This document shows, piece after piece, positions 54 through 49,805 of a DNA stretch of 64,000 nucleotides. The stretch is from contig OZ220727.1 of assembly GCA_965116865.1 (NCBI GenBank), forward strand, positions 3,038,307 through 3,102,306, read 5' to 3'. The notes beneath the pieces are model-generated. The model made no database searches. It was given only the letters and a program-made list of their open reading frames with translations, and had not been told where the DNA came from. The translations under genes were made by a program, and so were the position numbers. Each line of letters opens with the position of its first letter. The first letter of the stretch is position 1. The DNA is from Acidimicrobiales bacterium (GTDB lineage Bacteria; Actinomycetota; Acidimicrobiia; Acidimicrobiales; Aldehydirespiratoraceae).

Positions 54-188
54 GAGGCCGAGCGAATAGGCGGGCCAGTCCGGATCATACGGGCGAGGCC
101 GTGGCCCGAGCGGCCCGTGAGCGCAGCGAATAAGAGCGGGAATGACACCGCTGCGACACAATCGGCTCTCACCTATTCGCGGACGCTC
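54..188 (-). mobile_element. MITE-like non-autonomous element, copy 1 (135 bp, inverted relative to copies 2 and 3)
   Basis: Its reverse complement is near-identical by eye to 39585-39720 and 49669-49805. Imperfect 23-bp terminal inverted repeats: GAGGCCGAGCGAATAGGCGGGAG and GAGCGTCCGCGAATAGGTGAGAG. Flanked by direct TAA (51-53 and 189-191). Ends 12 nt before the ATG at 201. Confidence 0.75.
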
Positions 189-4160: not shown

Positions 4161-4361
4161 CTCGCCCTCCTCGAAGCGGGCCGTAGCGGCCGCGCGGTCA
4201 CGACCTCGGGCGCCGACCAGTCTGCCAACGCGCGGCGGGCGCGGCAACGGCCGCGCACGGTCCTGGCGGCGGTCGGCCTGCGGTTTTCCGTCGGCGGCTC
4301 ACGGGCGCGGCGGGGGTCCTGCTCCCGCCGCTGGGGGGGAGGTTGTTGCAACCCCACCAAG

Positions 4362-4401
4362 CTGGTATACAGTCCGGTATACGAGTCTGTATACCAGGAG
4401 G
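4362..4401 (+). promoter_or_regulatory. Triple GTATAC motif and 9-bp-stem hairpin abutting the Shine-Dalgarno of giant gene 1
   Basis: CTGGTATAC (4362-4370), GGTATAC (4376-4382), GTATACCAG (4389-4397). The outer pair are perfect reverse complements. AGGAGG lies at 4396-4401 and the ATG at 4407. Confidence 0.45.
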
Positions 4402-4406
4402 CTGTT

Positions 4407-16400: not shown

Positions 16401-19400
16401 ACGGCGGGTTCGGGTTCTGTGTTGTCGTTGGTGTTTGCTGTGGGTGATTGGGACAGTTTCCAGTCGGTGACGGTGCTTGCCGGCGGCGACGATGACATTG
16501 TCGACGATGTCGTGACGTTGCGCCATGTCGCGTCGGGTGGTGGTTTCGATGTGTCTGGTGATGTGGAGGTGACCGTCGAAGATGATGACACCGCGGGGTT
16601 GGTGTTCGACGCGGGTTCGGTGTCGGTGGTGGAGGGTTCGCACGCGGTTTACGGGGTGAGGTTGTCGGGTGAGCCGTCGGGGTCTGTGTCTGTGTCGTTG
16701 TCGGCGGTTGACGGCGCGGGTGGTGATCTGGTGTTGTCGGCTGCGACGGCAGGTTCGGGGTCTGTGTTGTCGTTGGTGTTCTCTGTGGGTGATTGGGACA
16801 GTTTCCAGTCGGTGACAGTGCTTGCCGGTTCTGACGATGACATTGTCGACGATGTCGTGACGTTGCGCCACATGGCGTCTGGTGGTGGTTTCGATGTGTC
16901 TGGTGATGTTGAGGTGACCGTCGAAGACGATGACACCGCGGGGTTGGTGTTCGACACGGGGTCGGTGTCGGTGGTTGAGGGTGCCGGGGTCGAGTACGGG
17001 GTGAGGTTGTCTGCTGAGCCGTCGGGGTCTGTGTCTGTGTCGGTGTCGGCGGGCGCGGGCAGTGATCTGGTGTTGTCGGCTGCGACGGCGGGTTCGGGTT
17101 CTGTGTTGTCGTTGGTGTTCGCTGTGGGTGATTGGGACAGTTTCCAGTCGGTGACGGTGCTTGCTGGTTCTGACGATGACATTGTCGACGATGTCGTGGT
17201 GTTGCGCCATGTGGCGTCGGGTGGTGGTTTCGATGTGTCGGGTGATGTGGAGGTGACGGTCGAAGATGATGACACCGCGGGGTTGGTGTTCGATGCGGGG
17301 TCGGTGTCGGTGGTTGAGGGTGCCGGGGTCGAGTACGGGGTGAGGTTGTCTGCTGAGCCGTCGGGGTCTGTGTCTGTGTCGGTGTCGGCGGTTGATGGCG
17401 CGGGTGGTGATCTGGTGTTGTCGGCTGCGACGGCGGGTTCGGGTTCTGTGTTGTCGTTGGTGTTCGCTGTGGGTGATTGGGACAGTTTCCAGTCGGTGAC
17501 GGTGCTTGCTGGTTCTGACGATGACATTGTCGACGATGTCGTGGTGTTGCGCCATGTGGCGTCGGGTGGTGGTTTCGATGTGTCGGGTGATGTGGAGGTG
17601 ACGGTCGAAGATGATGACACCGCGGGGTTGGTGTTCGATGCGGGGTCGGTGTCGGTGGTTGAGGGTGCCGGGGTCGAGTACGGGGTGAGGTTGTCTGCTG
17701 AGCCGTCGGGGTCTGTGTCTGTGTCGGTGTCGGCGGTTGATGGCGCGGGTGGTGATCTGGTGTTGTCGGCTGCGACGGCGGGTTCGGGTTCTGTGTTGTC
17801 GTTGGTGTTCGCTGTGGGTGATTGGGACAGTTTCCAGTCGGTGACGGTGCTTGCTGGTTCTGACGATGACATTGTCGACGATGTCGTGGTGTTGCGCCAT
17901 GTGGCGTCGGGTGGTGGTTTCGATGTGTCGGGTGATGTGGAGGTGACGGTCGAAGATGATGACACCGCGGGGTTGGTGTTCGATGCGGGTTCGGTGTCGG
18001 TGGTTGAGGGTGCCGGGGTCGAGTACGGGGTGAGGTTGTCTGCTGAGCCGTCGGGGTCTGTGTCTGTGTCGGTGTCGGCGGTCGCGGGCAGTGATCTGGT
18101 GTTGTCGGCTGCGACGGCGGGTTCGGGTTCTGTGTTGTCGTTGGTGTTCGCTGTGGGTGATTGGGACAGTTTCCAGTCGGTGACGGTGCTTGCTGGTTCT
18201 GACGATGACATTGTCGACGATGTCGTGGTGTTGCGCCATGTGGCGTCGGGTGGTGGTTTCGATGTGTCGGGTGATGTGGAGGTGACGGTCGAAGATGATG
18301 ACACCGCAGGGTTGGTGTTCGACGCGGGGTCGATGTCGATGGTTGAAGGTTCGCACGCGGTTTACGGGGTGAGGTTGTCTGCTGAGCCGTCGGGGTCTGT
18401 GTCTGTGTCGGTGTCGGCGGTCGCGGGCAGTGATCTGGTGTTGTCGGCTGCGACGGCGGGTTCGGGTTCGGTGTTGTCGTTGGTGTTCGCTGTGGGTGAT
18501 TGGGACAGTTTCCAGTCGGTGACGGTGCTTGCTGGTTCTGACGATGACATTGTCGACGATGTCGTGACGTTGCGCCACATGGCGTCGGGTGGTGGTTTCA
18601 ATGTGTCGGGTGATGTGGAGGTGACGGTCGAAGATGATGACACCGCGGGGTTGGTGTTCGACGCGGGGTCGGTGTCGGTGGGCGAGGGTTCGCACGCGGT
18701 CTACGGGGTGAGGTTGTCGGGTGAGCCGTCGGGGTCTGTGTCTGTGTCGGTGTCGGCGGTTGACGGAGCGGGCAGTTATCTAGTGCTAGTGTCGGGTTCG
18801 AGGTCTGTGCTGTCGTTGGTGTTCGCGGCGGGTGATTGGGACAGCTTCCAGTCAGTGACGGTGTACGCTGCTGGCGACGCTGACATCGTCGACGATGTCG
18901 TGACGCTGCGCCATGTCGCGTCGGGTGGTGGTTTCGATGTGTCTGGTGATGTGGAGGTGACGGTCGAAGATGACGACACCGCGGGGTTGGTGTTCGATGC
19001 GGGGTCGATGTCGATGGTTGAGGGTTCGCACGCGGTTTACGGGGTGAGGTTGTCGGGTGAGCCGTCGGGGTCTGTGTCTGTGTCGTTGTCGGCGGTTGAC
19101 GGCGCGGGTGATGATCTGGTGTTGTCGGCTGCGACGGCGGGTTCGGGTTCTGTGTTGTCGTTGGTGTTCGCTGTGGGTGATTGGGACAGCTTCCAGTCGG
19201 TGACGGTGCATGCTGGCGGCGACGCTGACATCGTCGACGATGTCGTGACGCTGCGCCATGTCGCGTCGGGTGGTGGTTTCGATGTGTCGGGTGATATGGT
19301 GGTGACCGTCGAAGATGACGACACCGCTCCGCCGTCTCCGCCACCCCCGCCTCCTCCGCCGTCAAGTTCGCCTCTTCTTCCGCCGGAGGGTCCTTCTTCG

Positions 19401-25522: not shown

Positions 25523-28500
25523 TTATGCGGTTGTGTCGAGGTTGAGGGCGTGTCGCAGAAAGCTGGCCATCTGAGCCCTTGTGACATGCTGGTGCGGGCA
25601 GTAGCGCAACGGGTCGGTGCCGCAGCCCCTGGTGATACCGTTGTGGCGCATGGCGTCGATGGCTGCCGCGTGGGGACTCTCCGGGTCCACATCAACGAAT
25701 CCCGCAGGCTGGGGAGCACCCGCCAAGCCGAGCGTACGCGACAACAGGCTGGCCATCTGAGCCCTGGTGACGGGCAGGTCGGGGCAGTAGCGCAACGGGT
25801 TGGTGCCGCAGCCCTTGGTGACATCGTTGTGGTGCAAGGCGTCGATGGCTGCCGCGTGGGGACTCTCCGGGTCCACATCAACGAATCCCGCAGGCTGGGG
25901 AGCACCCGCCAAGCCGAGCGTACGCGACAACAGGCTGGCCATCTGAGCCCTGGTGACGGGCAGGTCGGGGCAGTAGCGCAACGGGTTGGTGCCGCAGCCG
26001 TGAGTGATGCCGTTGTGGAACATCATTTCGATGGCCGTCGCGTGGGCACTGGCGATGTCCACGTCGGCGAACCCCGCGAACTGCGGCGGGGGCGGCGGGG
26101 GCTGCGGGGCAGGATCCTCCTGAGCCGACGGAGGCGGCGGCGGAGGCGGAGGCGGAGGCGGAGGCGGCGGAGGCGGAGGCGGAGGCGGAGGCGGCGGAGG
26201 CGGCGCGGTGTCGTCGTCGGTGATGGTGACGATGACGTTGCCGGTTGTGTCGTAGCCGCCGCCTGAGGTGTCGTGGCGTAGTGTCGCGGTGTCGTCGACG
26301 ATGTCGTCGTCTTCGTCGGCGTGCACCGTCACTGTCTGGTAGGTGTCCCAGTTGTTTGTGGTGAATGTCAGTGACAGCACAGGCCCTGCAGCCGTCACTG
26401 TCACTGAGCTTGCCGTCGGTGTGGACAGTACCAGGTCGTTGTCTGCGAGCGCGGACACGGTCATGGTCACAGCGTCTGCGGGCTGCGCCGAGAGCCGCAC
26501 CGTGTATGTGGAGTCGGTGCCTTCGGTGACTGTCGCTGCTGTCGGGTCGAATTGCAGGCCTGCGGTGTCGTCGTCGGTGATGGTGACGATGACGTTGCCG
26601 GTTGTGTCGTAGTCGCCGCCTGAGGTGTCGTGGCGTAGTGTCGCGGTGTCGTCGGCGGTGTCGTCGTCTTCGTCGGCGTGCACCGTCACTGTCTGGTAGG
26701 TGTCCCAGTTGTTTGTGGTGAATGTCAGTGACAGTACAGGCCCTGCAGTCGTCACTGTCACTGAGCTTGCCGTCGGTGTGGACAGCACTAGGTCGTTGTC
26801 TGCGAGCGCGGACACGGTCATGGTCACAGCGTCTGCGGGCTGCGCCGAGAGCCGCACCGTGTATGTGGTGTCGGTGCCTTCGGTGACTGTCGCTGCTGTC
26901 GGGTCGAATTGCAGGCCTGCGGTGTCGTCGTCGGTGATGGTGACGATGACGTTGCCGGTTGTGTCGTAGTCGCCGCCTGAGGTGTCGTGGCGTAGTGTTG
27001 CGGTGTCGTCGGCGGTGTCGTCGTCTTCGTCGGCGTGCACCGTCACTGTCTGGTAGGTGTCCCAGTTGTTTGTGGTGAATGTCAGTGACAGTACAGGCCC
27101 TGCAGTCGTCACTGTCACTGAGCTTGCCGTCGGTGTGGACAGTACCAGGTCGTTGTCTGCGAGCGCGGACACGGTCATGGTCACAGCGTCTGCGGGCTGC
27201 GCCGAGAGCCGCACCGTGTATGTGGTGTCGGTGCCTTCGGTGACTGTCGCTGCTGTCGGGTCGAATTGCAGGCCTGCGGTGTCGTCGTCGGTGATGGTGA
27301 CGATGACGTTGCCGGTTGTGTCGTAGTCGCCGCCTGAGGTGTCGTGGCGTAGTGTTGCGGTGTCGTCGGCGGTGTCGTCGTCTTCGTCGGCGTGCACCGT
27401 CACTGTCTGGTAGGTGTCCCAGTTGTTTGTGGTGAATGTCAGTGACAGTACAGGCCCTGCAGTCGTCACTGTCACTGAGCTTGCCGTCGGTGTGGACAGC
27501 ACTAGGTCGTTGTCTGCGAGCGCGGACACGGTCATGGTCACAGCGTCTGCGGGCTGCGCCGAGAGCCGCACCGTGTATGTGGTGTCGGTGCCTTCGGTGA
27601 CTGTCGCTGCTGTCGGGTCGAATTGCAGGCCTGCGGTGTCGTCGTCGGTGATGGTGACGATGACGTTGCCGGTTGTGTCGTAGTCGCCGCCTGAGGTGTC
27701 GTGGCGTAGTGTTGCGGTGTCGTCGGCGGTGTCGTCGTCTTCGTCGGCGTGCACCGTCACTGTCTGGTAGGTGTCCCAGTTGTTTGTGGTGAATGTCAGT
27801 GACAGCACAGGCCCTGCAGTCGTCACTGTCACTGAGCTTGCCGTCGGTGTGGACAGCACTAGGTCGTTGTCTGCGAGCGCGGACACGGTCATGGTCACAG
27901 CGTCTGCGGGCTGCGCCGAGAGCCGCACCGTGTATGTGGTGTCGGTGCCTTCGGTGACTGTCGCTGCTGTCGGGTCGAATTGCAGGCCTGCGGTGTCGTC
28001 GTCGGTGATGGTGACGATGACGTTGCCGGTTGTGTCGTAGTCGCCGCCTGAGGTGTCGTGGCGTAGTGTTGCGGTGTCGTCGGCGGTGTCGTCGTCTTCG
28101 TCGGCGTGCACCGTCACTGTCTGGTAGGTGTCCCAGTTGTTTGTGGTGAATGTCAGTGACAGTACAGGCCCTGCAGTCGTCACTGTCACTGAGCTTGCCG
28201 TCGGTGTGGACAGTACCAGGTCGTTGTCTGCGAGCGCGGACACGGTCATGGTCACAGCGTCTGCGGGCTGCGCCGAGAGCCGCACCGTGTATGTGGTGTC
28301 GGTGCCTTCGGTGACTGTCGCTGCTGTCGGGTCGAATTGCAGGCCTGCGGTGTCGTCGTCGGTGATGGTGACGATGACGTTGCCGGTTGTGTCGTAGTCG
28401 CCGCCTGAGGTGTCGTGGCGTAGTGTTGCGGTGTCGTCGGCGGTGTCGTCGTCTTCGTCGGCGTGCACCGTCACTGTCTGGTAGGTGTCCCAGTTGTTTG

Positions 28501-31500
28501 TGGTGAATGTCAGTGACAGTACAGGCCCTGCAGTCGTCACTGTCACTGAGCTTGCCGTCGGTGTGGACAGTACCAGGTCGTTGTCTGCGAGCGCGGACAC
28601 GGTCATGGTCACAGCGTCTGCGGGCTGCGCCGAGAGCCGCACCGTGTATGTGGTGTCGGTGCCTTCGGTGACTGTCGCTGCTGTCGGGTCGAATTGCAGG
28701 CCTGCGGTGTCGTCGTCGGTGATGGTGACGATGACGTTGCCGGTTGTGTCGTAGTCGCCGCCTGAGGTGTCGTGGCGTAGTGTTGCGGTGTCGTCGGCGG
28801 TGTCGTCGTCTTCGTCGGCGTGCACCGTCACTGTCTGGTAGGTGTCCCAGTTGTTTGTGGTGAATGTCAGTGACAGTACAGGCCCTGCAGTCGTCACTGT
28901 CACTGGGCTTGTCGTCGGTGTGGACAGTACCAGGTCGTTGTCTGCGAGCGCGGACACGGTCATGGTCACATCGTCTGCGGGCTGCGACGAGAGCCGCACC
29001 GTGTATGTGGTGTCGGTGCCTTCGGTGACTGTCGCTGCTGTCGGGTCGAATTGCAGGCCTGCGGTGTCGTCGTCGGTGATGGTGACGATGACGTTGCCGG
29101 TTGTGTCGTAGTCGCCGCCTGAGGTGTCGTGGCGTAGTGTTGCGGTGTCGTCGGCGGTGTCGTCGTCTTCGTCGGCGTGCACCGTCACTGTCTGGTAGGT
29201 GTCCCAGTTGTTTGTGGTGAATGTCAGTGACAGCACAGGCCCTGCAGTCGTCACTGTCACTGAGCTTGCCGTCGGTGTGGACAGTACCAGGTCGTTGTCT
29301 GCGAGCGCGGACACGGTCATGGTCACAGCGTCTGCGGGCTGCGCCGAGAGCCGCACCGTGTATGTGGAGTCGGTGCCTTCGGTGACTGTCGCTGCTGTCG
29401 GGTCGAATTGCAGGCCTGCGGTGTCGTCGTCGGTGATGGTGACGATGACGTTGCCGGTTGTGTCGTAGCCGCCGCCTGAGGTGTCGTGGCGTAGTGTCGC
29501 GGTGTCGTCGGCGATGTCGTCGTCTTCGTCGGCGTGCACCGTCACTGTCTGGTAGGTGTCCCAGTTGTTTGTGGTGAATGTCAGTGACAGTACAGGCCCT
29601 GCAGTCGTCACTGTCACTGAGCTTGCCGTCGGTGTGGACAGTACCAGGTCGTTGTCTGCGAGCGCGGACACGGTCATGGTCACAGCGTCTGCGGGCTGCG
29701 CCGAGAGCCGCACCGTGTATGTGGAGTCGGTGCCTTCGGTGACTGTCGCTGCTGTCGGGTCGAATTGCAGGCCTGCGGTGTCGTCGTCGGTGATGGTGAC
29801 GATGACGTTGCCGGTTGTGTCGTAGCCGCCGCCTGAGGTGTCGTGGCGCAGTGTTGCGGTGTCGTCGGCGATGTCGTCGTCTTCGTCGGCGTGCACCGTC
29901 ACTGTCTGGTAGGTGTCCCAGTTGTTTGTGGTGAATGTCAGTGACAGTACAGGCCCTGCAGTCGTCACTGTCACTGAGCTTGCCGTCGGTGTGGACAGTA
30001 CCAGGTCGTTGTCTGCGAGCGCGGACACGGTCATGGTCACAGCGTCTGCGGGCTGCGCCGAGAGCCGCACCGTGTATGTGGAGTCGGTGCCTTCGGTGAC
30101 TGTCGCTGCTGTCGGGTCGAATTGCAGGCCTGCGGTGTCGTCGTCGGTGATGGTGACGATGACGTTGCCGGTTGTGTCGTAGTCGCCGCCTGAGGTGTCG
30201 TGGCGCAGTGTTGCGGTGTCGTCGGCGATGTCGTCGTCTTCGTCGGCGTGCACCGTCACTGTCTGGTAGGTGTCCCAGTTGTTTGTGGTGAATGTCAGTG
30301 ACAGTACAGGCCCTGCAGTCGTCACTGTCACTGGGCTTGTCGTCGGTGTGGACAGTACCAGGTCGTTGTCTGCGAGCGCGGACACGGTCATGGTCACATC
30401 GTCTGCGGGCTGCGACGAGAGCCGCACCGTGTATGCGGTGTTGGTGCCTTCGGTCACAGACAGCGCTGGCGGGTTGAATTGCAGGCCTGCGGTGTCGCTG
30501 TCTGTGATGGTGACGGTGATGTTGCCGGTTGTGTCGTAGTCGCCGCCTGAGGTGTCGTGGCGCAGTGTTGCGGTGTCGTCGACGGCGTCGTCGTCTTCGT
30601 CGGCGTGCACCGTCACTGTCTGGAACACGTTCCAGTTGCTTGTGGTGAATGTCAGTGACAGCACAGGTTCCGAAATCGACACTGACACTGAGCTTGCCGT
30701 CGGTGTGGACAGTACCAGGTCGTTGTCTGCGAGCGCGGACACGGTCATGGTCACAGCGTCTGCGGGCTGCGACGAGAGCCGCACCGCGTATGTGGTGCTG
30801 TCGCCTTCGGTCACAGACAGCGCTGGCGGGTTGAATTGCAGGCCTGCGGTGTCGTTGTCGGTGATGGTGACGGTGATGTTGCCGGTTGTGTCGTAGTCGC
30901 CGCCTGAGGTGTCGTGGCGTAGTGTCGCGGTGTCGTCGACGGCGTCGTCGTCTTCGTCGGCGTGCACCGTCACTGACTGGTAGGTGCCCCAGTTGCTTGT
31001 GGTGAATGTCAGTGACAGCACAGGTTCCGAAATCGACACTGACACTGAGCTTGCCGTCGGTGTGGACAGTACCAGGTCGTTGTCTGCGAGCGCGGACACG
31101 GTCACGGTCACATCGTCTGCGGGCTGCGACGAGAGCCGCACCGCGTATGTGGTGCTGTCGCCTTCGGTCACAGACAGCGCTGGCGGGTTGAATTGCAGGC
31201 CTGCGGTGTCGTTGTCGGTGATGGTGACGGTGATGTTGCCGGTTGTGTCGTAGTCGCCGCCTGAGGTGTCGTGGCGTAGTGTCGCGGTGTCGTCGGCGAT
31301 GTCGTCGTCTTCGTCGGCGTGCACCGTCACTGACTGGTAGGTGCCCCAGTTGCTTGTGGTGAATGTCAGTGACAGCACAGGTTCCGAAATCGACACTGAC
31401 ACTGAGCTTGCCGTCGGTGTGGACAGTACCAGGTCGTTGTCTGCGAGCGCGGACACGGTCACGGTCACATCGTCTGCGGGCTGCGACGAGAGCCGCACCC

Positions 31501-34500
31501 CGTATGTGGTGTTGGTGCCTTCGGTGACCGTCACTGCTGGCGGGTCGAATTGCAGGCCTGCGGTGTCGTCGTCGGTGACCGTCACGGTCATGCTGGCGGT
31601 GACGGTGTCGAAGTCGGCGCCTGATGCGGTGTGGGTTAGTGTGAGAGTGTCGTTGGCAATGTCGTCGTCGTGGCTGGCAGTGACGGTGACGGTCTGTGCT
31701 GTGTTCCAAGCGGCCTGGGCGAACGTCAAGGAGGTGCTGCTGAGGGTGGCGTCGGTGTCGGCGTGGCCGGTGACGGCGACGATGACTGGTCCGGTGGGCT
31801 GCCCGTTCAGTTTGACGTTGTAGCTGTTGGTAAAGCCTTCGTTGACGGTCAGCGACGACGTGGACAGTTTCAGGGCCTGGGTGTCGTTGTCGGTGCTTTC
31901 GGCGTAGAAGTGAGTGTCGGCAGAGTCGAAGCCGCCGCCGCTAGCGTTGTGCCTCAGCCCGATCGAGTTGTCTGAGAAGTCGTCGTCTTCCGCGGCGGTG
32001 ACGGAGACGGTCTGCCAGGTGTCCCATGCGGAGACGGCGAACGTTAAGGTCGTCGGACTCACCGTCATGATGGAGCTGGTTGCAGGAATGATCTCGACAG
32101 TCACCTCGGCCGTTGGCTCTCCGGACAGCCTCACAGTGTATCCGGCGGTGGAGCCCTCCGGCACGCTTACCCCGGAGGACGGCTGGAATTCAAGAGATGG
32201 GGTGTCGTTGTCGTTGATGGTGACGACGAGGTTGTTGTCGGCGTCGTCAAAGCCGCCGCCGGTGGAGTCGTGGGCGAGCGAGAGCGAGTCGGTGACAATG
32301 TTGTCGTCCTCGCCGGCGGTGACGGAGACGGTCTGCCAGGTGTCCCATGCGGAGACGGCGAACGTTAAGGTCGTCGAGCTCACCGTCATGATGGAGCTGG
32401 CTGGAGGAGTGATCGCTACGGTTACATCGTCTGCGGGCTGCGACGAGAGCCGCACCCCGTATGTGGTGTTGGTGCCTTCGGTGACCGTCACTGCTGGCGG
32501 GTCGAATTGCAGGCCTGCGGTGTCGTCGTCGGTGACCGTCACGGTCATGCTGGCGGTGACGGTGTCGAAGTCGGCGCCTGATGCGGTGTGGGTTAGTGTG
32601 AGAGTGTCGTTGGCAATGTCGTCGTCGTGGCTGGCAGTGACGGTGACGGTCTGTGCTGTGTTCCAAGCGGCCTGGGTGAACGTCAAGGAGGTGCTGCTGA
32701 GGGTGGCGTCGGTGTCGGCGTGGCCGGTGACGGCGACGATGACTGGTCCGGTGGGCTGCCCGTTCAGTTTGACGTTGTAGCTGTTGGTAAAGCCTTCGTT
32801 GACGGTCAGCGACGACGTGGACAGTTTCAGGGCCTGGGTGTCGTTGTCGGTGCTTTCGGCGTAGAAGTGAGTGTCGGCAGAGTCGAAGCCGCCGCCGCTA
32901 GCGTTGTGCCTCAGCCCGATCGAGTTGTCTGAGAAGTCGTCGTCTTCCGCGGCGGTGACGGAGACGGTCTGCCAGGTGTCCCATGCGGAGACGGCGAACG
33001 TTAAGGTCGTCGGACTCACCGTCATGATGGAGCTGGTTGCAGGAATGATCTCGACAGTCACCTCGGCCGTTGGCTCTCCGGACAGCCTCACAGTGTATCC
33101 GGCGGTGGAGCCCTCCGGCACGCTTACCCCGGAGGACGGCTGGAATTCAAGAGATGGGGTGTCGTTGTCGTTGATGGTGACGACGAGGTTGTTGTCGGCG
33201 TCGTCAAAGCCGCCGCCGGTGGAGTCGTGGGCGAGCGAGAGCGAGTCGGTGACAATGTTGTCGTCCTCGCCGGCGGTGACGGAGACGGTCTGCCAGGTGT
33301 CCCATGCGGAGACGGCGAACGTTAAGGTCGTCGAGCTCACCGTCATGATGGAGCTGGCTGGAGGAGTGATCGCTACGGTTACATCGTCTGCGGGCTGCGA
33401 CGAGAGCCGCACCGCGTATGTGGTGCTGTCGCCTTCGGTCACAGACAGCGCTGTCGGGTCGAATTTCAGGCCTGCGGTGTCGTTGTCGGTGATGGTGACG
33501 GTGATGTTGCCGGTTGTGTCGTAGTCGCCGCCTGAGGTGTCGTGGCGTAGTGTCGCGGTGTCGTCGGCGATGTCGTCGTCTTCGTCGGCGTGCACCGTCA
33601 CTGACTGGTAGGTGCCCCAGTTGCTTGTGGTGAATGTCAGTGACAGCACAGGTTCCGAAATCGACACTGACACTGAGCTTGCCGTCGGTGTGGACAGTAC
33701 CAGGTCGTTGTCTGCGAGCGCGGACACGGTCACGGTCACATCGTCTGCGGGCTGCGACGAGAGCCGCACCCCGTATGTGGTGTTGGTGCCTTCGGTGACC
33801 GTCACTGCTGGCGGGTCGAATTGCAGGCCTGCGGTGTCGTCGTCGGTGACCGTCACGGTCATGCTGGCGGTGACGGTGTCGAAGTCGGCGCCTGATGCGG
33901 TGTGGGTTAGTGTGAGAGTGTCGTTGGCAATGTCGTCGTCGTGGCTGGCAGTGACGGTGACGGTCTGTGCTGTGTTCCAAGCGGCCTGGGCGAACGTCAA
34001 GGAGGTGCTGCTGAGGGTGGCGTCGGTGTCGGCGTGGCCGGTGACGGCGACGATGACTGGTCCGGTGGGCTGCCCGTTCAGTTTGACGTTGTAGCTGTTG
34101 GTAAAGCCTTCGTTGACGGTCAGCGACGACGTGGACAGTTTCAGGGCCTGGGTGTCGTTGTCGGTGCTTTCGGCGTAGAAGTGAGTGCCGGCAGAGTCGA
34201 AGCCGCCGCCGCTAGCGTTGTGCCACAGCCCGATCGAGTTGTCTGAGAAGTCGTCGTCTTCCGCGGCGGTGACGGAGACGGTCTGCCAGGTGTCCCATGC
34301 GGAGACGGCGAACGTTAAGGTCGTCGGACTCACCGTCATGATGGAGCTGGTTGCAGGAATGATCTCGACAGTCACCTCGGCCGTTGGCTCTCCGGACAGC
34401 CTCACAGTGTATCCGGCGGTGGAGCCCTCCGGCACGCTTACCCCGGAGGACGGCTGGAATTCAAGAGATGGGGTGTCGTTGTCGTTGATGGTGACGACGA

Positions 34501-36250
34501 GGTTGTTGTCGGCGTCGTCAAAGCCGCCGCCGGTGGAGTCGTGGGCGAGCGAGAGCGAGTCGGTGACAATGTTGTCGTCCTCGCCGGCGGTGACGGAGAC
34601 GGTCTGCCAGGTGTCCCATGCGGAGACGGCGAACGTTAAGGTCGTCGGGCTCACCGTCATGATGGAGCTGGCTGGAGGAGTGATCGCTACGGTCACATCG
34701 TCTGCGGGCTGTTTAGATAGTTGCACCTTGTAGTTGGCGGTGGAGCCCTCATCAACCTCGACCGGGTCAGGACTGAAAATCAGGCCATGGGTGCTGATAA
34801 CGATCGGTGCCTTGTTCCGTGAGAGTTCGGAGAAGCCGGTGTAGCCAGCCTCAGCTAGGGCCACATAGAAGATTTCACGACTTTCTGTAGGCTCATTTCC
34901 AGATACGTCGATTTCGATATTAGCGGACCCATTTGCCGTAGCGGTGCCAGCACCGTTGAACTTCTCGTAGCCGTAGATGATGTAATCTGTGATAGATCCG
35001 CCGGAGAAGAGCTCAGCGTGTCCATAATTGAAGTTCTCCATCGTCAGGCTCTGTGTATCGCTGAAAGACACATCCTGACTGAATCCAGGATCGGCTTGGG
35101 GGATCAGCGAATCTCCCGACACCAGCGCGCGCTGACCGCCGTCGTTGGAAGAGTGAAGAATGGCGACCACTGGCCAAGGAGCCGCGTCTCCGTTATTAGT
35201 CAGCGTGCATTCCGAGGTATCGCCCGGTGCTACTTCCGCTGGGCAGTTTAGCTGGAAGTCGCCGGAGTTGACTGTCACTGTGCTGGACATCGTAGCTCGG
35301 GTGACGTTCAGGGTGTATGTCGTCTGCGTGGTTCCGTCTTCTGCTGTGACCTCGACGACCAGGCTTGTTATGCCCACATCTATGGGTATTGCCGGGCTCT
35401 CTGTTTCGCTGGTGAGCGTGGCTACGGTCGTTCCGTTGATGCTCAAAGTAATGGTCTGTGCTTGACTGTGGGTAGGTGTGGCGGTCAGATAGACCTCTGT
35501 GATCGAATAATCGACAGACTGATTATATGTGCGCGGATCAGCGCTGGTGTCCAATGAAATCGGACTCGCGGAACCGTAGGTAAAGGTCAGTTCGCTCAGT
35601 GAACTGTCGGTGCTCTTGCTGTCCGAACTCGCGATGGTTATTGCCGTCTTGTTCAGAAAGAACCGGCCGGCTCCCGTGGCGTCGTTAGGGGCAAGTCCGA
35701 CGTAGAAGGTCTCGCTGTCTTCATAGTGGGAGTCGTCCACGACAGTGATCGGGATGGTCCGGGAGTCGTTGCCGTCGGCGTCGCCGGATGCGGGGGCTAC
35801 TCCGGACCAATCGAATCGAGAGATCCCGATGAGGTGCTCGCCTACCCAGATGAGCTCGCCCTCGACAGTCGGTTCGGGGGTGAGCGTGCCCCATTGGACA
35901 TCGACGGACCCGCCTCGTACCAGGGCTCTGTTCGAGTCTGTGGACAGGTGAAGCATGGCGACGGCGGGCCAGTTGGCCTCCGCGTCGCCGGTGTGGGTGA
36001 GGGTGCATTGGTGGGTCGTCCCTTCCTGCATGGTGGACGGGCACGCCAACGTGAAGTCGCCGGAGGAGACCTCGGCCAGGGAGTCCTCCGACTCTGGGGG
36101 GGAGGCGAGTTGCCAGGCGATCAGAGTTACCCACGCGGCCGGAGCGAGCATGACCAGCGCTCGCGCCGCGGTGCGAGCGGGCGAACGGCGCCAAGACCGC
36201 CCCCCGGCTGCCTCGTCTCGCACTGCCGCTGGCGCTTCGGGGTCGATCAT
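25523..36250 (-). CDS. Giant (3575-aa) SLH-anchored cell-surface protein with 25 Calx-beta-like repeats
   Basis: N-terminal Arg-rich region plus hydrophobic helix (RSWRRSPARTAARALVMLAPAAWVTLIAWQLA). Two Cys-containing Calx-beta-like modules (ending ...TIPITVVDDSHYEDSETFYVGL and ...EPTESREIFYVALAE) flank one cadherin-like beta-sandwich (SLSELTFTYGSASPISL...TYTLNVTRA). Repeat array. About 25 consecutive Pro. Three SLH domains. No convincing SD before the ATG at 36250, so the start is less certain than the gene. Confidence 0.88.
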   Translation of the reverse strand: MIDPEAPAAVRDEAAGGRSWRRSPARTAARALVMLAPAAWVTLIAWQLASPPESEDSLAEVSSGDFTLACPSTMQEGTTHQCTLTHTGDAEANWPAVAMLHLSTDSNRALVRGGSVDVQWGTLTPEPTVEGELIWVGEHLIGISRFDWSGVAPASGDADGNDSRTIPITVVDDSHYEDSETFYVGLAPNDATGAGRFFLNKTAITIASSDSKSTDSSLSELTFTYGSASPISLDTSADPRTYNQSVDYSITEVYLTATPTHSQAQTITLSINGTTVATLTSETESPAIPIDVGITSLVVEVTAEDGTTQTTYTLNVTRATMSSTVTVNSGDFQLNCPAEVAPGDTSECTLTNNGDAAPWPVVAILHSSNDGGQRALVSGDSLIPQADPGFSQDVSFSDTQSLTMENFNYGHAELFSGGSITDYIIYGYEKFNGAGTATANGSANIEIDVSGNEPTESREIFYVALAEAGYTGFSELSRNKAPIVISTHGLIFSPDPVEVDEGSTANYKVQLSKQPADDVTVAITPPASSIMTVSPTTLTFAVSAWDTWQTVSVTAGEDDNIVTDSLSLAHDSTGGGFDDADNNLVVTINDNDTPSLEFQPSSGVSVPEGSTAGYTVRLSGEPTAEVTVEIIPATSSIMTVSPTTLTFAVSAWDTWQTVSVTAAEDDDFSDNSIGLWHNASGGGFDSAGTHFYAESTDNDTQALKLSTSSLTVNEGFTNSYNVKLNGQPTGPVIVAVTGHADTDATLSSTSLTFAQAAWNTAQTVTVTASHDDDIANDTLTLTHTASGADFDTVTASMTVTVTDDDTAGLQFDPPAVTVTEGTNTTYGVRLSSQPADDVTVTVSALADNDLVLSTPTASSVSVSISEPVLSLTFTTSNWGTYQSVTVHADEDDDIADDTATLRHDTSGGDYDTTGNITVTITDNDTAGLKFDPTALSVTEGDSTTYAVRLSSQPADDVTVAITPPASSIMTVSSTTLTFAVSAWDTWQTVSVTAGEDDNIVTDSLSLAHDSTGGGFDDADNNLVVTINDNDTPSLEFQPSSGVSVPEGSTAGYTVRLSGEPTAEVTVEIIPATSSIMTVSPTTLTFAVSAWDTWQTVSVTAAEDDDFSDNSIGLRHNASGGGFDSADTHFYAESTDNDTQALKLSTSSLTVNEGFTNSYNVKLNGQPTGPVIVAVTGHADTDATLSSTSLTFTQAAWNTAQTVTVTASHDDDIANDTLTLTHTASGADFDTVTASMTVTVTDDDTAGLQFDPPAVTVTEGTNTTYGVRLSSQPADDVTVAITPPASSIMTVSSTTLTFAVSAWDTWQTVSVTAGEDDNIVTDSLSLAHDSTGGGFDDADNNLVVTINDNDTPSLEFQPSSGVSVPEGSTAGYTVRLSGEPTAEVTVEIIPATSSIMTVSPTTLTFAVSAWDTWQTVSVTAAEDDDFSDNSIGLRHNASGGGFDSADTHFYAESTDNDTQALKLSTSSLTVNEGFTNSYNVKLNGQPTGPVIVAVTGHADTDATLSSTSLTFAQAAWNTAQTVTVTASHDDDIANDTLTLTHTASGADFDTVTASMTVTVTDDDTAGLQFDPPAVTVTEGTNTTYGVRLSSQPADDVTVTVSALADNDLVLSTPTASSVSVSISEPVLSLTFTTSNWGTYQSVTVHADEDDDIADDTATLRHDTSGGDYDTTGNITVTITDNDTAGLQFNPPALSVTEGDSTTYAVRLSSQPADDVTVTVSALADNDLVLSTPTASSVSVSISEPVLSLTFTTSNWGTYQSVTVHADEDDDAVDDTATLRHDTSGGDYDTTGNITVTITDNDTAGLQFNPPALSVTEGDSTTYAVRLSSQPADAVTMTVSALADNDLVLSTPTASSVSVSISEPVLSLTFTTSNWNVFQTVTVHADEDDDAVDDTATLRHDTSGGDYDTTGNITVTITDSDTAGLQFNPPALSVTEGTNTAYTVRLSSQPADDVTMTVSALADNDLVLSTPTTSPVTVTTAGPVLSLTFTTNNWDTYQTVTVHADEDDDIADDTATLRHDTSGGDYDTTGNVIVTITDDDTAGLQFDPTAATVTEGTDSTYTVRLSAQPADAVTMTVSALADNDLVLSTPTASSVTVTTAGPVLSLTFTTNNWDTYQTVTVHADEDDDIADDTATLRHDTSGGGYDTTGNVIVTITDDDTAGLQFDPTAATVTEGTDSTYTVRLSAQPADAVTMTVSALADNDLVLSTPTASSVTVTTAGPVLSLTFTTNNWDTYQTVTVHADEDDDIADDTATLRHDTSGGGYDTTGNVIVTITDDDTAGLQFDPTAATVTEGTDSTYTVRLSAQPADAVTMTVSALADNDLVLSTPTASSVTVTTAGPVLSLTFTTNNWDTYQTVTVHADEDDDTADDTATLRHDTSGGDYDTTGNVIVTITDDDTAGLQFDPTAATVTEGTDTTYTVRLSSQPADDVTMTVSALADNDLVLSTPTTSPVTVTTAGPVLSLTFTTNNWDTYQTVTVHADEDDDTADDTATLRHDTSGGDYDTTGNVIVTITDDDTAGLQFDPTAATVTEGTDTTYTVRLSAQPADAVTMTVSALADNDLVLSTPTASSVTVTTAGPVLSLTFTTNNWDTYQTVTVHADEDDDTADDTATLRHDTSGGDYDTTGNVIVTITDDDTAGLQFDPTAATVTEGTDTTYTVRLSAQPADAVTMTVSALADNDLVLSTPTASSVTVTTAGPVLSLTFTTNNWDTYQTVTVHADEDDDTADDTATLRHDTSGGDYDTTGNVIVTITDDDTAGLQFDPTAATVTEGTDTTYTVRLSAQPADAVTMTVSALADNDLVLSTPTASSVTVTTAGPVLSLTFTTNNWDTYQTVTVHADEDDDTADDTATLRHDTSGGDYDTTGNVIVTITDDDTAGLQFDPTAATVTEGTDTTYTVRLSAQPADAVTMTVSALADNDLVLSTPTASSVTVTTAGPVLSLTFTTNNWDTYQTVTVHADEDDDTADDTATLRHDTSGGDYDTTGNVIVTITDDDTAGLQFDPTAATVTEGTDTTYTVRLSAQPADAVTMTVSALADNDLVLSTPTASSVTVTTAGPVLSLTFTTNNWDTYQTVTVHADEDDDTADDTATLRHDTSGGDYDTTGNVIVTITDDDTAGLQFDPTAATVTEGTDTTYTVRLSAQPADAVTMTVSALADNDLVLSTPTASSVTVTTAGPVLSLTFTTNNWDTYQTVTVHADEDDDTADDTATLRHDTSGGDYDTTGNVIVTITDDDTAGLQFDPTAATVTEGTDSTYTVRLSAQPADAVTMTVSALADNDLVLSTPTASSVTVTAAGPVLSLTFTTNNWDTYQTVTVHADEDDDIVDDTATLRHDTSGGGYDTTGNVIVTITDDDTAPPPPPPPPPPPPPPPPPPPPPPPPPSAQEDPAPQPPPPPPQFAGFADVDIASAHATAIEMMFHNGITHGCGTNPLRYCPDLPVTRAQMASLLSRTLGLAGAPQPAGFVDVDPESPHAAAIDALHHNDVTKGCGTNPLRYCPDLPVTRAQMASLLSRTLGLAGAPQPAGFVDVDPESPHAAAIDAMRHNGITRGCGTDPLRYCPHQHVTRAQMASFLRHALNLDTTA
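25526..26084 (-). other. Three tandem SLH domains, C-terminus of giant gene 2
   Basis: FADVDIASAHATAIEMMFHNGITHGCGTNPLRYCPDLPVTRAQMASLLSRTLG and two further copies. The last 32+ nt of conserved core (CCGTTGCGCTACTGCCCGCACCAGCATGTCAC) are identical to gene 1. Confidence 0.85.
26129..26203 (-). repeat. (CCG/CCT)n proline-codon tract, about 25 consecutive Pro codons by my count
   Basis: The plus strand reads cgg/agg triplets without interruption from 26129 to 26203. Confidence 0.9.
26215..34798 (-). repeat. In-frame coding tandem array of 25 units, protein order [A-B-C-D][A-B-C][A-B-C] then 15 D units of exactly 357 bp
   Basis: Off-frame plus-strand ORFs recur exactly every 357 bp at 26343, 26700 ... 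30270, 30984 and 31341. Larger periodicities of 957 and 1314 bp appear at 31914/32871/34185. D-unit consensus AGLQFDPTAATVTEGTDTTYTVRLSAQPADAVTMTVSALADNDLVLSTPTASSVTVTTAGPVLSLTFTTNNWDTYQTVTVHADEDDDTADDTATLRHDTSGGDYDTTGNVIVTITDDDT. Confidence 0.95.
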
Positions 36251-36959: not shown

Positions 36960-38108
36960 CTAGCTGAGAGCCTGGTCGAGGTCGGCCAGGAGGTCATCGA
37001 TGGTCTCGATGCCGACGGAGAGGCGGATCAGTCCGGGGTCGACAGCCAGAGGGGAGTCGGCCACCGAGAGATGCGTCATGGTGGACGGCTGCTCGATGAG
37101 CGACTCCACCGCGCCCAGCGACTCGGCCAGCCGGAAGACCCGGGTGGAGCCAGCCGCGGCCGCCGCGGCGGGCTCGCCGCCGGCGAGGATGCACGACACC
37201 ATCCCGCCGAAGCCGCGCATCTGGCGTGCCGCCAGATCGTGGCCCGGATGGTCCGGCAGGCCCGGGTACAGAACGCGGGCCACTCCAGGGTGGTCGTCAA
37301 GGTACACGGCCACTGCCTGCGCGTTGGCACAGTGGCGGTCCATGCGGACGCCCAAGGTCTTGACGCCCCGCAGCAGCAGATAGCAGTCGAACGGGCCAGG
37401 CACCGCGCCCGCCGCGTTCTGGACGAAGGCCAGCTGTTCGGCCAGCTGGTCGTCGTTGGTGGCTACGAACCCGCCGACCACGTCGGAGTGGCCGCCCAGG
37501 TACTTGGTGCTGGAGTGGACCACGGCGTCGGCGCCCGCCGCCAGCGGGTTCTGCAGGTAGGGGGTGGCGAAGGTGTTGTCGACGATCAGCACGGCGCCCG
37601 CGGCGTGGGCCGCCTCGGCCGTCGCAGCGATGTCGACCACGGACAAGTTGGGGTTGGTCGGCGTCTCGACCCACACCTGCCGGGTCTCGGGCCGCAGCGC
37701 GCCGGCCAAGGCCGCGGGGTCGGTCAGGTCCACCGCCGACCAGGCGACGCCCCGCTGGCCGTGGATGCGGGCGATCAGCCGGAACGTTCCGCCGTAGGCG
37801 TCGAGGCCGAGCACCACGTGGTCGCCCGGGTGCAGCAGGCCCGCCAGCGCGTTCTCGGCGGCCATGCCGCTCGCGAACGCGAACCCGTGCCTCGCCCCCT
37901 CCAGCCCTGCCAAGCTGCGCTCCAGCGCGGCCCGTGTGGGGTTCGACGTGCGGGAGTACTCGTAGCCCCGGTGCTTCCCCGGCGCGTGCTGCACGAAGGT
38001 GGTGGCCAGGTGGACGGGCACGGTTATCGCCCCGGTGGCCTCGTCGGGCTCCTGGCCGACGTGGACGGCCCTGGTCTCGAACCCCCAGGTGTCGTCGCGC
38101 CCGCTCAC
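36960..38108 (-). CDS. Cystathionine gamma-lyase/gamma-synthase family PLP enzyme (Cys/Met metabolism)
   Basis: GTG at 38108 overlaps the CBS stop (GTGA). ETRAVHVG..., YSRTSNPTRAALE, PLP-lysine motif SSTKYLGGHSD, ...LIRLSVGIE. The upstream 374 codons of the 756-aa ORF-track entry run out of frame across CBS and are rejected. Confidence 0.88.
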   Translation of the reverse strand: MSGRDDTWGFETRAVHVGQEPDEATGAITVPVHLATTFVQHAPGKHRGYEYSRTSNPTRAALERSLAGLEGARHGFAFASGMAAENALAGLLHPGDHVVLGLDAYGGTFRLIARIHGQRGVAWSAVDLTDPAALAGALRPETRQVWVETPTNPNLSVVDIAATAEAAHAAGAVLIVDNTFATPYLQNPLAAGADAVVHSSTKYLGGHSDVVGGFVATNDDQLAEQLAFVQNAAGAVPGPFDCYLLLRGVKTLGVRMDRHCANAQAVAVYLDDHPGVARVLYPGLPDHPGHDLAARQMRGFGGMVSCILAGGEPAAAAAAGSTRVFRLAESLGAVESLIEQPSTMTHLSVADSPLAVDPGLIRLSVGIETIDDLLADLDQALS

Positions 38109-39496
38109 GGGCCCGACCCGTCGCCGATGGCGTCGCCCGACCCCGATGACAGGTAGCTGAGCACGTCGGTACTGGAGACAACCGCCCGGGGCCGGCCGCC
38201 GTCGAGCACCAGCAGCGCTGGCGACCGCTCCAGCTTCGTCACCGCCAGCGCTACCGGCTCGCCGATGCCGATCTGTTCCAGCGGCCTGCTCATCACGCTC
38301 TCCACCGGCCGGCCGAGCAGGTCGCCGTCGAAGGCCAGGGCCATCAGCTGCAGCTCGTGGACCGATCCCATCACCTCGGCCGCGGCCAGCGGCATCTCGC
38401 CCTTGGCCACGGGAAGCTGGCTCAGTCCGTTCTCGCGCATGCGGGTGACGGCCAGGCTCACCGGGTCGTCGGGGTTCACGTACACCAGCGGGGGGAGCGC
38501 GCCCGCCTTCGCGTCGAGCACGTCCTTCACGCAGGGATGCTCGCCGATCAGGAACCCGTGCGACGCCATCCACTCGTCGTTGAACACTTTCGACAGGTAG
38601 CCCCGGCCGGAGTCGGGCAGCAGCAGCACCACCACGTCGTCGGGTCCGCAGTCTCGGGCCAGCTCGGCGGCGGCGCACACAGCGGTCCCTCCCGAGCCTC
38701 CGATCAGCAGGCCCTCGCGGCGTGAGACCAGCCGGGCCATGTCGAAGGAGGCCTGGTCGGACACGGCGATCACGCGGTCCACCACCTCGGGGTGGTAGGT
38801 CTCGGGCCAGAAGTCCTCGCCGATGCCCTCCACCTGGTAGGGCCGCCCGGACCCGCCGCTGAACACCGAGCCGGCCGGGTCGGCCGCCACGACCTGCACT
38901 GACGGGTTGCACCGCTTGAGGTAGCGGCCCGCCCCGCTGATGGTGCCCCCGGTGCCCGGCCCGGCCACGAAATGGGTGATGCGGCCGCCGGTCTGGCGCC
39001 AGAGCTCGGGTCCGGTCGTCTTCTCGTGGGCGAGGGGGTTCTCCTGGTTGAAGTACTGGTTGGGCCGGTAGGCGCCCGGCGTGGAGGCCATGAGCCGCTC
39101 GGCGGTGGAGTAGTAGGAGTCGGGGTCCTCGGGCGCCACCGCCACGGGGCACACCACCACCTCGGCGCCGTAGGCCCGCAGCAGTTGCACCTTCTCTGCG
39201 CTCACCTTGTCGGTCATCACGAAGACGCACCGGTAGCCCCGCTGGGCGCCGACCATCGCCAGGCCGACACCGGTGTTGCCCGAAGTGGGCTCGATGATCG
39301 TTCCGCCCGGCTCGAGCAGCCCGTCGCGCTCTGCCCCGTCGATCATCGCGACAGCTATGCGGTCCTTGACGCTGCCGCCGGGGTTGAGCATCTCGAGCTT
39401 GGCCAGCACGTCGCAGCGAGCCTCGGGTATCGCCCGCTGCATCCGCACCAGCGGCGTGTTCCCCACGAGGTTGAGGACGGAGTCGGCGACCTCCAC
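38105..39496 (-). CDS. cbs: Cystathionine beta-synthase (PLP fold-type II domain plus tandem CBS domains)
   Basis: 463 aa. LVGNTPLV, PLP-lysine context NPGGSVKDR, TSGNTGVGLA, GTGGTISG. The C-terminal ~130 aa have two CBS-pair-like segments. Forms an operon with the gamma-lyase, consistent with reverse transsulfuration. Confidence 0.85.
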   Translation of the reverse strand: MEVADSVLNLVGNTPLVRMQRAIPEARCDVLAKLEMLNPGGSVKDRIAVAMIDGAERDGLLEPGGTIIEPTSGNTGVGLAMVGAQRGYRCVFVMTDKVSAEKVQLLRAYGAEVVVCPVAVAPEDPDSYYSTAERLMASTPGAYRPNQYFNQENPLAHEKTTGPELWRQTGGRITHFVAGPGTGGTISGAGRYLKRCNPSVQVVAADPAGSVFSGGSGRPYQVEGIGEDFWPETYHPEVVDRVIAVSDQASFDMARLVSRREGLLIGGSGGTAVCAAAELARDCGPDDVVVLLLPDSGRGYLSKVFNDEWMASHGFLIGEHPCVKDVLDAKAGALPPLVYVNPDDPVSLAVTRMRENGLSQLPVAKGEMPLAAAEVMGSVHELQLMALAFDGDLLGRPVESVMSRPLEQIGIGEPVALAVTKLERSPALLVLDGGRPRAVVSSTDVLSYLSSGSGDAIGDGSGP

Positions 39497-39584
39497 GCCC
39501 GGAAGGCTATCGGGCTCGGTCGTCCCGGCGCTCCCGCTGCAGCCCCCTTCAGCAATGTTGTTCTAGCGATCTATCCTAGACTAA

Positions 39585-39720
39585 GAGCAAGCGCAAATAG
39601 GTGAGAGTCTGTGGTGTCGCTGCGGTGTCATTCCCGCTCTTGTTCGCTGCGCTCACGGGCCGCTCGGGCCACGGCCTCGCCTGTATGGGCCGCGTCGCTC
39701 CCGCCTATTCGCTCGGCCTC
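39585..39720 (+). mobile_element. MITE-like element, copy 2 (136 bp)
   Basis: Termini GAGCAAGCGCAAATAGGTGAGAG ... CTCCCGCCTATTCGCTCGGCCTC (16/23 complementary). Flanked by TAA at 39582-39584 and 39721-39723. A paralogous uninterrupted target lies at 39782-39834. Confidence 0.8.
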
Positions 39721-39740
39721 TAAAATAACCGGCCGAATCG

Positions 39741-39776
39741 GGGGCCGCTATTTTAGTGGACTTGAATAGCGGCCCC
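39741..39776. other. Perfect 12-bp-stem hairpin (GGGGCCGCTATT N12 AATAGCGGCCCC)
   Basis: Seen directly. Lies between the filled and empty copies of the duplicated target sequence. No U-tract on either strand adjacent to a convergent gene, so it is not called as a terminator. Confidence 0.6.
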
Positions 39777-39781
39777 GTTCC

Positions 39782-39834
39782 AGCGATGTTGTTCTAGCAA
39801 TCTACTATTGACTAAAATAACTGGCCGAATCGGG
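39782..39834 (+). repeat. Paralogous empty site of MITE copy 2
   Basis: agcgatgttgttctagcaatctactattgacTAAaataactggccgaatcggg corresponds to 39551-39584 plus 39721-39745 (agcaatgttgttctagcgatctatcctagacTAA[element]TAAaataaccggccgaatcggg), with a single TAA. Confidence 0.8.
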
Positions 39835-39876
39835 CTTCGCGATTCTAGGATGGGCTGGAACATCGGCCGGCATTCA

Positions 39877-39918
39877 GCGGCAAGGAGAAGGCGGCAAGGA
39901 GAAGGGGGCAAGGAGAAG
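39877..39918 (+). repeat. 14-bp tandem repeat x3, each unit containing an SD-like AAGGAG
   Basis: gcggcaaggagaag gcggcaaggagaag ggggcaaggagaag, immediately upstream of the Fic-remnant ATG (39929). Confidence 0.85.
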
Positions 39919-39928
39919 GGAAGGACGG

Positions 39929-40304
39929 ATGGAACCCACCCGAGCCGGGCACTTCCGTCGGCAGCTCAGCGGTTACGAGGCGTTCGTGCCCAAGCCGCTT
40001 CCGCCCGACCCGCCGCTGCAGTGGGACACTCGCCTGGTCAGGCTGCTGTCAGACGCCACGGTGGCGCTGGGCCGCCTGGACGGGATGGCCGGCAGCCTCT
40101 CGAACCCCGACCTGTTCGTGGCGTCCTATGTCCGGCGCGAGGCGGTGCTCAGCCCTCGGCTCGTCGCCCGCGACCGTCGGCCGCCTGCTCGACGCGCTGG
40201 TCTCTGAGGGAATCATCGAGGAGATAACCGGCCGAAGGCGCGACCGCGTCTACCGGTACTCGCCGTTCCTCGACGTGCTCTCGGACGACGCCGAACCCGC
40301 CTAG
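39929..40304 (+). pseudogene. Fic/DOC-family protein remnant (Fic_N region fused out of frame to the C-terminal winged-helix; catalytic core deleted)
   Basis: The N-terminal ORF (GHFRRQLSGYEAFVPKPLPPDPPLQWDTRLVRLLSDATVALGRLDGMAGSLSNPDLFVASYVRREAVLS) matches the Fic N-terminal domain pattern. A different frame from about 40148 gives SSPATVGRLLDALVSEGIIEEITGRRRDRVYRYSPFLDVL. No HPFxxGNGR motif anywhere between. Confidence 0.6.
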
Positions 40305-49668: not shown

Positions 49669-49805
49669 GAGCGCGCGCGAATCGGTGAGAGTCCGTGGTG
49701 TCGCAGCGGTGTCGTTCCCGCTCTTGTTCGCTGCGACCTGAGGGCCGTTCGGGCCACGGCCTCGCCTGTATGGGCCGCGTCGCTCCCGCCTGTTCGCTCG
49801 GCCTC
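49669..49805 (+). mobile_element. MITE-like element, copy 3 (137 bp)
   Basis: GAGCGCGCGCGAATCGGTGAGAG ... CCGCCTGTTCGCTCGGCCTC. Near-identical by eye to copy 2. Flanks are CTT and TAT, so the duplication is degraded or absent. Its last base overlaps the TAG stop of the PuuD-like gene. Confidence 0.7.

Follow-up and report, generated by a model that had tools for sequence, protein, structure and literature searches.

The window, by which we mean the whole 64-kb stretch of DNA that was analysed, contains on its minus strand a cystathionine beta-synthase (CBS) gene (38105–39496) and, diverging from it on the plus strand, the remains of a gene for a Fic protein (39929–40304). Between the two lie two 92-nt units in tandem, of which the CBS-proximal one (39550–39780, plus strand) is filled by a 136-nt non-coding element and the Fic-proximal one (39781–39872, plus strand) is free of it. 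The element (39585–39720, plus strand), situated 88 nt from the start codon of the CBS gene, is a member of a MITE family that is present three times within the 64 kb: it is 88–91% identical to the other two copies, found at 49669–49805 (plus strand, 91% identical) and at 54–188 (minus strand, 88% identical, flanked by TTA on both sides), and 88% identical to the family consensus. The sole ORF of at least 50 aa that overlaps the element (39611–39769) extends past it into the flank. What the locus records, as we argue here with high confidence, is the insertion of a MITE, accompanied by the duplication of a short TNA, into one of the units of a tandem module that was already in place.

The boundaries of the element can be read to the base. 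The 136-nt segment begins with GAG, ends with CTC and is bracketed by TAA, at 39582–39584 on the left and at 39721–39723 on the right, the very coordinates that had been given for the triplets in the original prediction. The two triplets pair with one another as a target-site duplication, and a single TAA is present at this point in the paralogous and in the orthologous empty sites. The terminal inverted repeats are imperfect: the left one, GAGCAAGCGCAAATAGGTGAGAG (39585–39607, plus strand), agrees at about 16 of its 23 positions with the right one (39698–39720, plus strand) read as reverse complement. The right end terminates in CCTATTCGCTCGGCCTC and is, of the two, the better conserved in the family, its last 17 nt standing at 90% or above over 84 copies.

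A filled site and a paralogous empty site had been proposed to lie side by side, and this is indeed the arrangement. When 39585–39723 is cut out, the rebuilt site aligns to the adjacent unit straight through the junction, without a gap, and GACTAAAATAAC occurs in both with one TAA, located in the empty copy at 39813–39815. The similarity of the flanks does, then, cross the insertion point: the local score of the rebuilt site against the downstream copy is 94, compared with 13.9 ± 2.1 and a maximum of 24 in 2000 shuffles, and BLAST of one against the other gives E = 1e-12. A repeat search likewise pairs 39543–39584 with 39774–39815 (79%) and 39720–39756 with 39812–39848 (84%). Two descriptions in the original prediction need amending. 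The duplicate of ~53 bp at 39782–39834 is real and its coordinates are right, but the similarity spans the full 92-nt tandem unit; and the hairpin at 39741–39776 (GCTATTTTAG...TTGAATAGC), said to separate the two target copies, does have a perfect 12-bp stem (GGGGCCGCTATT / AATAGCGGCCCC) with a 12-nt loop, but is part of the first, filled unit and no neutral spacer. An assembly artefact is out, since L001, an independent assembly of the same organism that is 99.985% identical over 13.4 kb, shows the identical filled structure. The logic is shared with the RESites ('Related to Empty Sites') of plant MITEs, in which an insertion-free paralogue fixes the boundaries and the duplication and which document MITE mobility in plants (the method of Le et al., as described in PMC2213677). 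In contrast to the plant cases, the empty site is here the adjoining tandem unit, the host is a bacterium, and an orthologous empty site stands in support.

That orthologous site comes from a sister species, L108, which was identically recovered from two samples as L190 and L191. Both of its units are empty, with a single TAA at the target, and the presence/absence polymorphism that was to be looked for in related strains is therefore there: the window and L001 have the filled site, L108, L190 and L191 the empty one. With the MITE and one TAA taken out, the whole intergenic region of the window is 94% identical to that of L108, and a search of 21 kb about the sister-species locus turned up no copy of the MITE. 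The same removal leaves the filled unit exactly 92 nt long (39550–39584 joined to 39724–39780) and 96% identical to its orthologue in L108, as against 75% to its neighbour; the Fic-proximal unit is 89% identical to its own orthologue. Since orthologous units are 89–96% identical whereas paralogous units are 73–78% identical, the duplication took place long before the species split; and since the sister species is empty in both units, the insertion took place after the duplication and after the split. The events accordingly line up as module duplication, species split and MITE insertion.

Orthologous loci, retrieved via the CBS protein, give the history of the module itself. CBS and Fic are divergent in these genomes, and where the 382-aa Fic is intact a tandem array of ~92–93-nt units lies between them, with two units each in L099, L101, L102, L103, L107 and L108 and three in L100. 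Fic and the array are both missing from L104–L106 and L109, in which pcrA lies 56 nt from CBS. Because the array is missing where Fic is missing, it belongs to the Fic upstream region, its copy number being variable; the duplication is an old, conserved 92-nt module of the Fic–CBS intergenic region and no by-product of transposition. L099 (2727–3000) and L100 (1439–1805), which encode the same CBS protein, carry two and three nearly identical units, respectively. Among close relatives (CBS ~94% identical), Fic and the array come and go as a block between pcrA and CBS, a pattern suggesting that the two together are an accessory cassette. The counterpart of the hairpin is degenerate in the second (Fic-proximal) unit, and an equivalent imperfect palindrome is located between units in L099, L102 and L107.

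Other histories of the locus have to be set against this one. The window by itself fits insertion and precise excision alike, so that the MITE could have inserted before the unit was duplicated and one of the copies could later have lost it without leaving a footprint. However, both units are empty in the sister species and in all five type-1 loci, and although the duplication far predates the species split, the MITE was seen in this lineage only; for practical purposes this rules out that a second unit, once filled, lost its copy by excision. The 92-bp unit might instead be a dispersed repeat, REP-like or a second mobile element, that was targeted by the MITE, in which case no local duplication would be involved. 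The unit does hold palindromes, as REP elements do, and some IS families target REP-type repeats. Nevertheless, it was found nowhere else in the 64-kb window or in ~0.8 Mb of related Acidimicrobiia loci, it is confined to the Fic–CBS interval and is missing together with Fic, and distant Fic genes retain its palindrome upstream, while the flanks of the other MITE copies are unrelated. We regard such a dispersed repeat as highly improbable, and retain the insertion of the MITE into one of two pre-existing tandem units.

The MITE family was surveyed by scanning genome contigs for an exact 28-mer from the MITE core. This returned more than 97 matching stretches; among the matches listed, all are in Acidimicrobiia MAGs, and the hosts include Candidatus Aldehydirespirator and sponge-associated Acidimicrobiaceae. 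The family statistics come from an alignment of 84 non-redundant copies, collected via the core 28-mer from the matches listed. The elements are 134–137 nt long in this alignment, with ends GAG...AATAGG and CCTATT...CTC. In some subfamilies the two terminal inverted repeats match almost perfectly (GAGGCCACGCGGATAGG vs GAGGCCGAGCGGATAGG), and at 39585–39720 they are imperfect, the left one being degenerate. On the left flank C is found at -4 in 66/84 copies, T at -3 in 55/84 and A at -1 in 57/84, and on the right flank T at +1 in 75/84 and G at +4 in 57/84, giving a family context of C-TNA-G. The TNA triplets on the two sides are identical in 22 of the 84 copies, compared with 6.3 ± 2.3 in permutations, 0 of 100,000 of which reach 22. 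Together with the single-TAA empty sites, this count bears out the predicted transposition with a 3-bp target duplication. The family is short and non-coding and combines terminal inverted repeats with a fixed duplication, dispersed copies and presence/absence polymorphism, that is, all the features by which MITEs are recognized. A variant subfamily of ~150 nt has one hairpin swapped and keeps the box GGTGTCATTCCCGCTCTTGTTCGCTGCGCTCAC. We also observed head-to-tail dimers of the MITE with one shared TNA (L005, 4305–4577; L084, 7453–7730) and, at ~6020–6090 of L096, stacked repeats of the terminal motif; these dimers and stacks suggest repeated insertion beside existing copies. BLAST of the MITE found nothing in a plasmid collection, there is no tRNA or tmRNA that could have served as integration target, and we found no paper in the literature that mentions both MITEs and Acidimicrobiia. 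The family is apparently new and undescribed, of a well-known kind. One locus hence provides base-precise boundaries and the duplication for a MITE family that is abundant in uncultured Acidimicrobiia, whose hosts include sponge-associated MAGs and a genus linked to sponge symbionts; such boundaries are an aid to repeat annotation and assembly, and provide a marker separating close lineages.

As to how the element arrived, we infer a cut-and-paste insertion at TAA in which a 136-bp non-autonomous DNA transposon, with imperfect terminal inverted repeats of ~17–23 bp starting with GAG, would have duplicated a 3-bp target by means of a transposase supplied in trans. An affiliation with the IS5 / PIF-Harbinger (Tourist-like) lineage seems reasonably probable, the two bases for this assignment being the TNA duplication in C-TNA-G and the end sequence. 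PIF/Harbinger elements, with transposases similar to that of IS5, typically duplicate 3 bp, TTA/TAA (PMC2213677), and 3-nt insertion sites occur in the IS1031 group and in the actinobacterial IS5-family element ISLxx6 (PMC2516522). The duplication described here lies within the 2–4 bp of the IS5 family, which is typically a 3-bp TNA. The ends of the IS1031 group, as given in ISfinder, also begin with GAG. Like Tourist-like MITEs, PIF/Harbinger and IS5 elements (IS1031 and IS427 groups), the present family is short and non-coding, with inverted ends and a TNA duplication, and like them it is intergenic and has a high copy number. Unlike its Tourist and IS5 relatives, however, its internal core outdoes the ends in conservation, and its hosts are uncultured Acidimicrobiia. 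Small intergenic repeats with inverted ends and short AT-rich targets near gene starts are also known as Correia elements (in Neisseria, where they duplicate TA), RUP and ERIC; they are like our family in being small inverted-end repeats between genes and near gene starts, but the sequences are unrelated.

We searched ~0.8 Mb of related loci for an autonomous IS with matching ends, both as end-motif pairs 60–3000 bp apart, with inspection of the ORFs in the best pairs, and as single ends, and found none. The pairs consisted of MITEs, of the 150-nt variant and of ordinary genes between two MITEs. One end pair, in L096, encloses a response regulator and another, in L089, a deacetylase-like gene, neither of which is a transposase, and ends that came without the standard core belong to the ~150-nt MITE variant and not to an autonomous IS.

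Two points about the element itself, the length of its duplication and the nature of its core, allow a different reading. A duplication of 5 bp (CTNAG) was discarded: both empty sites read CTAAA, and the left junction reads CTAAG with the G being the first base of the element. A 4-bp duplication, CTAA, would make the element 135 nt long, ending in ...GGCCT, with a target of the IS5-proper type (CTAA/CTAG). The empty sites, GA-CTAA-AATAAC, fit CTAA as well as they fit TAA, and among the 22 copies with an exact match -4 is C in 22/22 and +4 is G in 15/22. On the other hand, the terminal repeats are in register only if the outer G and C are counted at both ends (GAGGCC...), the right-hand C is present in 80/84 copies whereas C at -4 on the left is present in 66/84, and one insertion (L091, L062) has G-TAG on its right and C-TAG on its left. 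The register of the terminal repeats and the better conserved right-hand C thus favour 3 bp, and we consider the 4-bp alternative unlikely. The core, for its part, spans ~60 nt (element positions ~38–100, window 39622–39684) and is 90–100% conserved across genera, ~32 nt of it outside the ascertainment 28-mer, although the core looks more conserved than it is when copies are collected by an exact 28-mer taken from it; the left end of the family elements reaches just 50–80%. MITEs do not typically have a core that exceeds the ends in conservation. It could be proposed that selection maintains the 136-nt element chiefly as a functional module, for instance as a small RNA or protein-binding site, and that upstream of CBS it is regulatory; both the near-invariance of the core beside variable ends and the retention of the same box by the ~150-nt subfamily speak for this. 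Nonetheless, Rfam gave no match at gathering score over the whole window, and chance-level matches at E up to 10 over 39400–40000; as a single strand the MITE folds no better than shuffled sequence does (z = 0.16), and RNAalifold over 73 copies gave no meaningful covariation (covariation term -0.46). Moreover, a function would be compatible with mobility, for which the duplications and the empty sites are proof. We therefore find it improbable that the element is chiefly such a module; that transposition has spread its 60-nt core as a functional module is also less likely than the novel Fic operator to which we now turn. The preferred reading remains a MITE inserted with a TNA duplication.

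Each 92-nt unit contains a palindrome whose 10-bp arms are set apart by a 14-bp spacer. In the empty unit it is intact, GTTGTTCTAG-N14-CTAAAATAAC (39788–39821). In the filled unit (39557–39584) the left arm GTTGTTCTAG (39557–39566), the 14-nt spacer (39567–39580) and the CTAA of the right arm are still together, and the rest of the right arm, AATAAC, now lies at 39724–39729, 139 bp off. The target was the TAA in the right arm, CTAAAATAAC, of the CBS-proximal palindrome, the Fic-proximal copy having been spared. Another allele type of the palindrome reads GTTATTCTAG-N14-CTAGAAT(A/T)AA. A TAnnnT hexamer is present in each palindrome arm, and a simple sigma-70 scan of the intergenic region gave 0 promoter sites.

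The palindrome is also found upstream of distant homologues of the Fic gene. A metagenome scan with the L108 Fic protein gave 80 loci (L110–L189) with homologues 45–60% identical, and the upstream regions checked among them have a local G+C of 39% to 66%. Counting as a match at least 14 of the 18 positions of the consensus, no more than 200 nt upstream of the Fic start, TTATTTTAG-N14-CTAAAATAA is located upstream of Fic in 19 of the 80 loci (15 kb), compared with 4 matches in 344 kb elsewhere, a density ~100-fold higher upstream of Fic. The spacing is specific: in a scan of spacers from 8 to 20, N14 was found in 19 loci and each other spacing in 0–8. The sites cluster 45–103 nt before the Fic start codon. 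The hairpin at 39741–39776 corresponds to a second palindrome type with the same half-site at a shorter spacing; TTATTTCA-N6-TGAAATAA is present at the distant Fic loci L125 and L129, and this second type, with a half-site gap of 10, has weak support upstream of distant Fic genes, in 4 loci. L129 also has a second perfect TTATTTTAG-N14-CTAAAATAA, which closely follows the end of its Fic gene, ~1277 nt downstream of the start, and perhaps lies in front of another gene.

The proteins encoded next to these palindromes have a candidate DNA-binding domain. In the relatives (L099–L103, L107 and L108) the Fic protein contains Fic_N, Fic and a C-terminal HTH according to Pfam, and matches SoFic (3EQX) over its full length, a structure deposited as 'FIC domain containing transcriptional regulator'. 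CccR, a class II Fic protein with a C-terminal HTH, represses its own promoter via 10-bp inverted repeats (PMC9755527). At the level of architecture, our Fic proteins resemble CccR of Yersinia pseudotuberculosis (~380 aa, N-terminal inhibitory motif, Fic domain and C-terminal HTH), and the two systems also share 10-bp inverted repeats in the promoter region of the gene itself. They differ in the repeats, the arm being AGATAATCAT with N26 in CccR and TTATTTTAG with N14 here, and in that the module is tandemly duplicated here. A class II Fic + HTH gene is adjacent in the relatives, and as a remnant in the window, with conserved inverted repeats upstream, as at the CccR promoter. By analogy, the likeliest reading, to which we give about even odds, is that the 92-nt units are promoter/operator modules for Fic autoregulation; the palindromes would in that case be candidate operators that overlap the promoter and to which SoFic-type Fic would attach through its C-terminal winged-helix domain. 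More tentatively, the 34-bp palindrome may be an undescribed candidate operator that spans the phylum, and SoFic-type Fic AMP-transferases may generally be DNA-binding proteins that repress themselves. The insertion is well documented and biologically ordinary; the part of most follow-up value is the conserved Fic-associated palindrome. In the literature we found an experimentally defined target of a SoFic-type DNA-binding domain for CccR only, and the tandem 92-bp module with its conserved palindrome is a candidate operator for these widespread Fic proteins.

If this is true, the window would be a case of a MITE having put one of two tandem operators out of action in a lineage with a decayed toxin gene. 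The sister genomes have an intact 382-aa Fic gene, whereas tblastn with the L108 Fic finds in the window (39929–40304) residues 1–78 and 331–382 of the 382-aa protein, in different frames; the catalytic Fic domain is deleted, and Pfam gives Fic_N and a weak HTH. As Fic is here a deletion pseudogene, the split of one candidate operator probably came at little cost and with little consequence. Just before the Fic start codon, a 14-bp tandem repeat, GCGGCAAGGAGAAG, is present in 3 copies (39877–39918, plus strand), compared with one copy in L108, and overlaps the likely ribosome-binding region. The luciferase-like gene that adjoins Fic in the relatives is missing from the window. Elsewhere in the 64 kb there are two very long ORFs, one of 5438 aa on the plus strand (3642–19958) and one of 3575 aa on the minus strand (25523–36250), the latter including at ~26200–34700 a tandem array with a 357-bp period and units ~88–99% identical; they possibly encode giant repetitive surface proteins.
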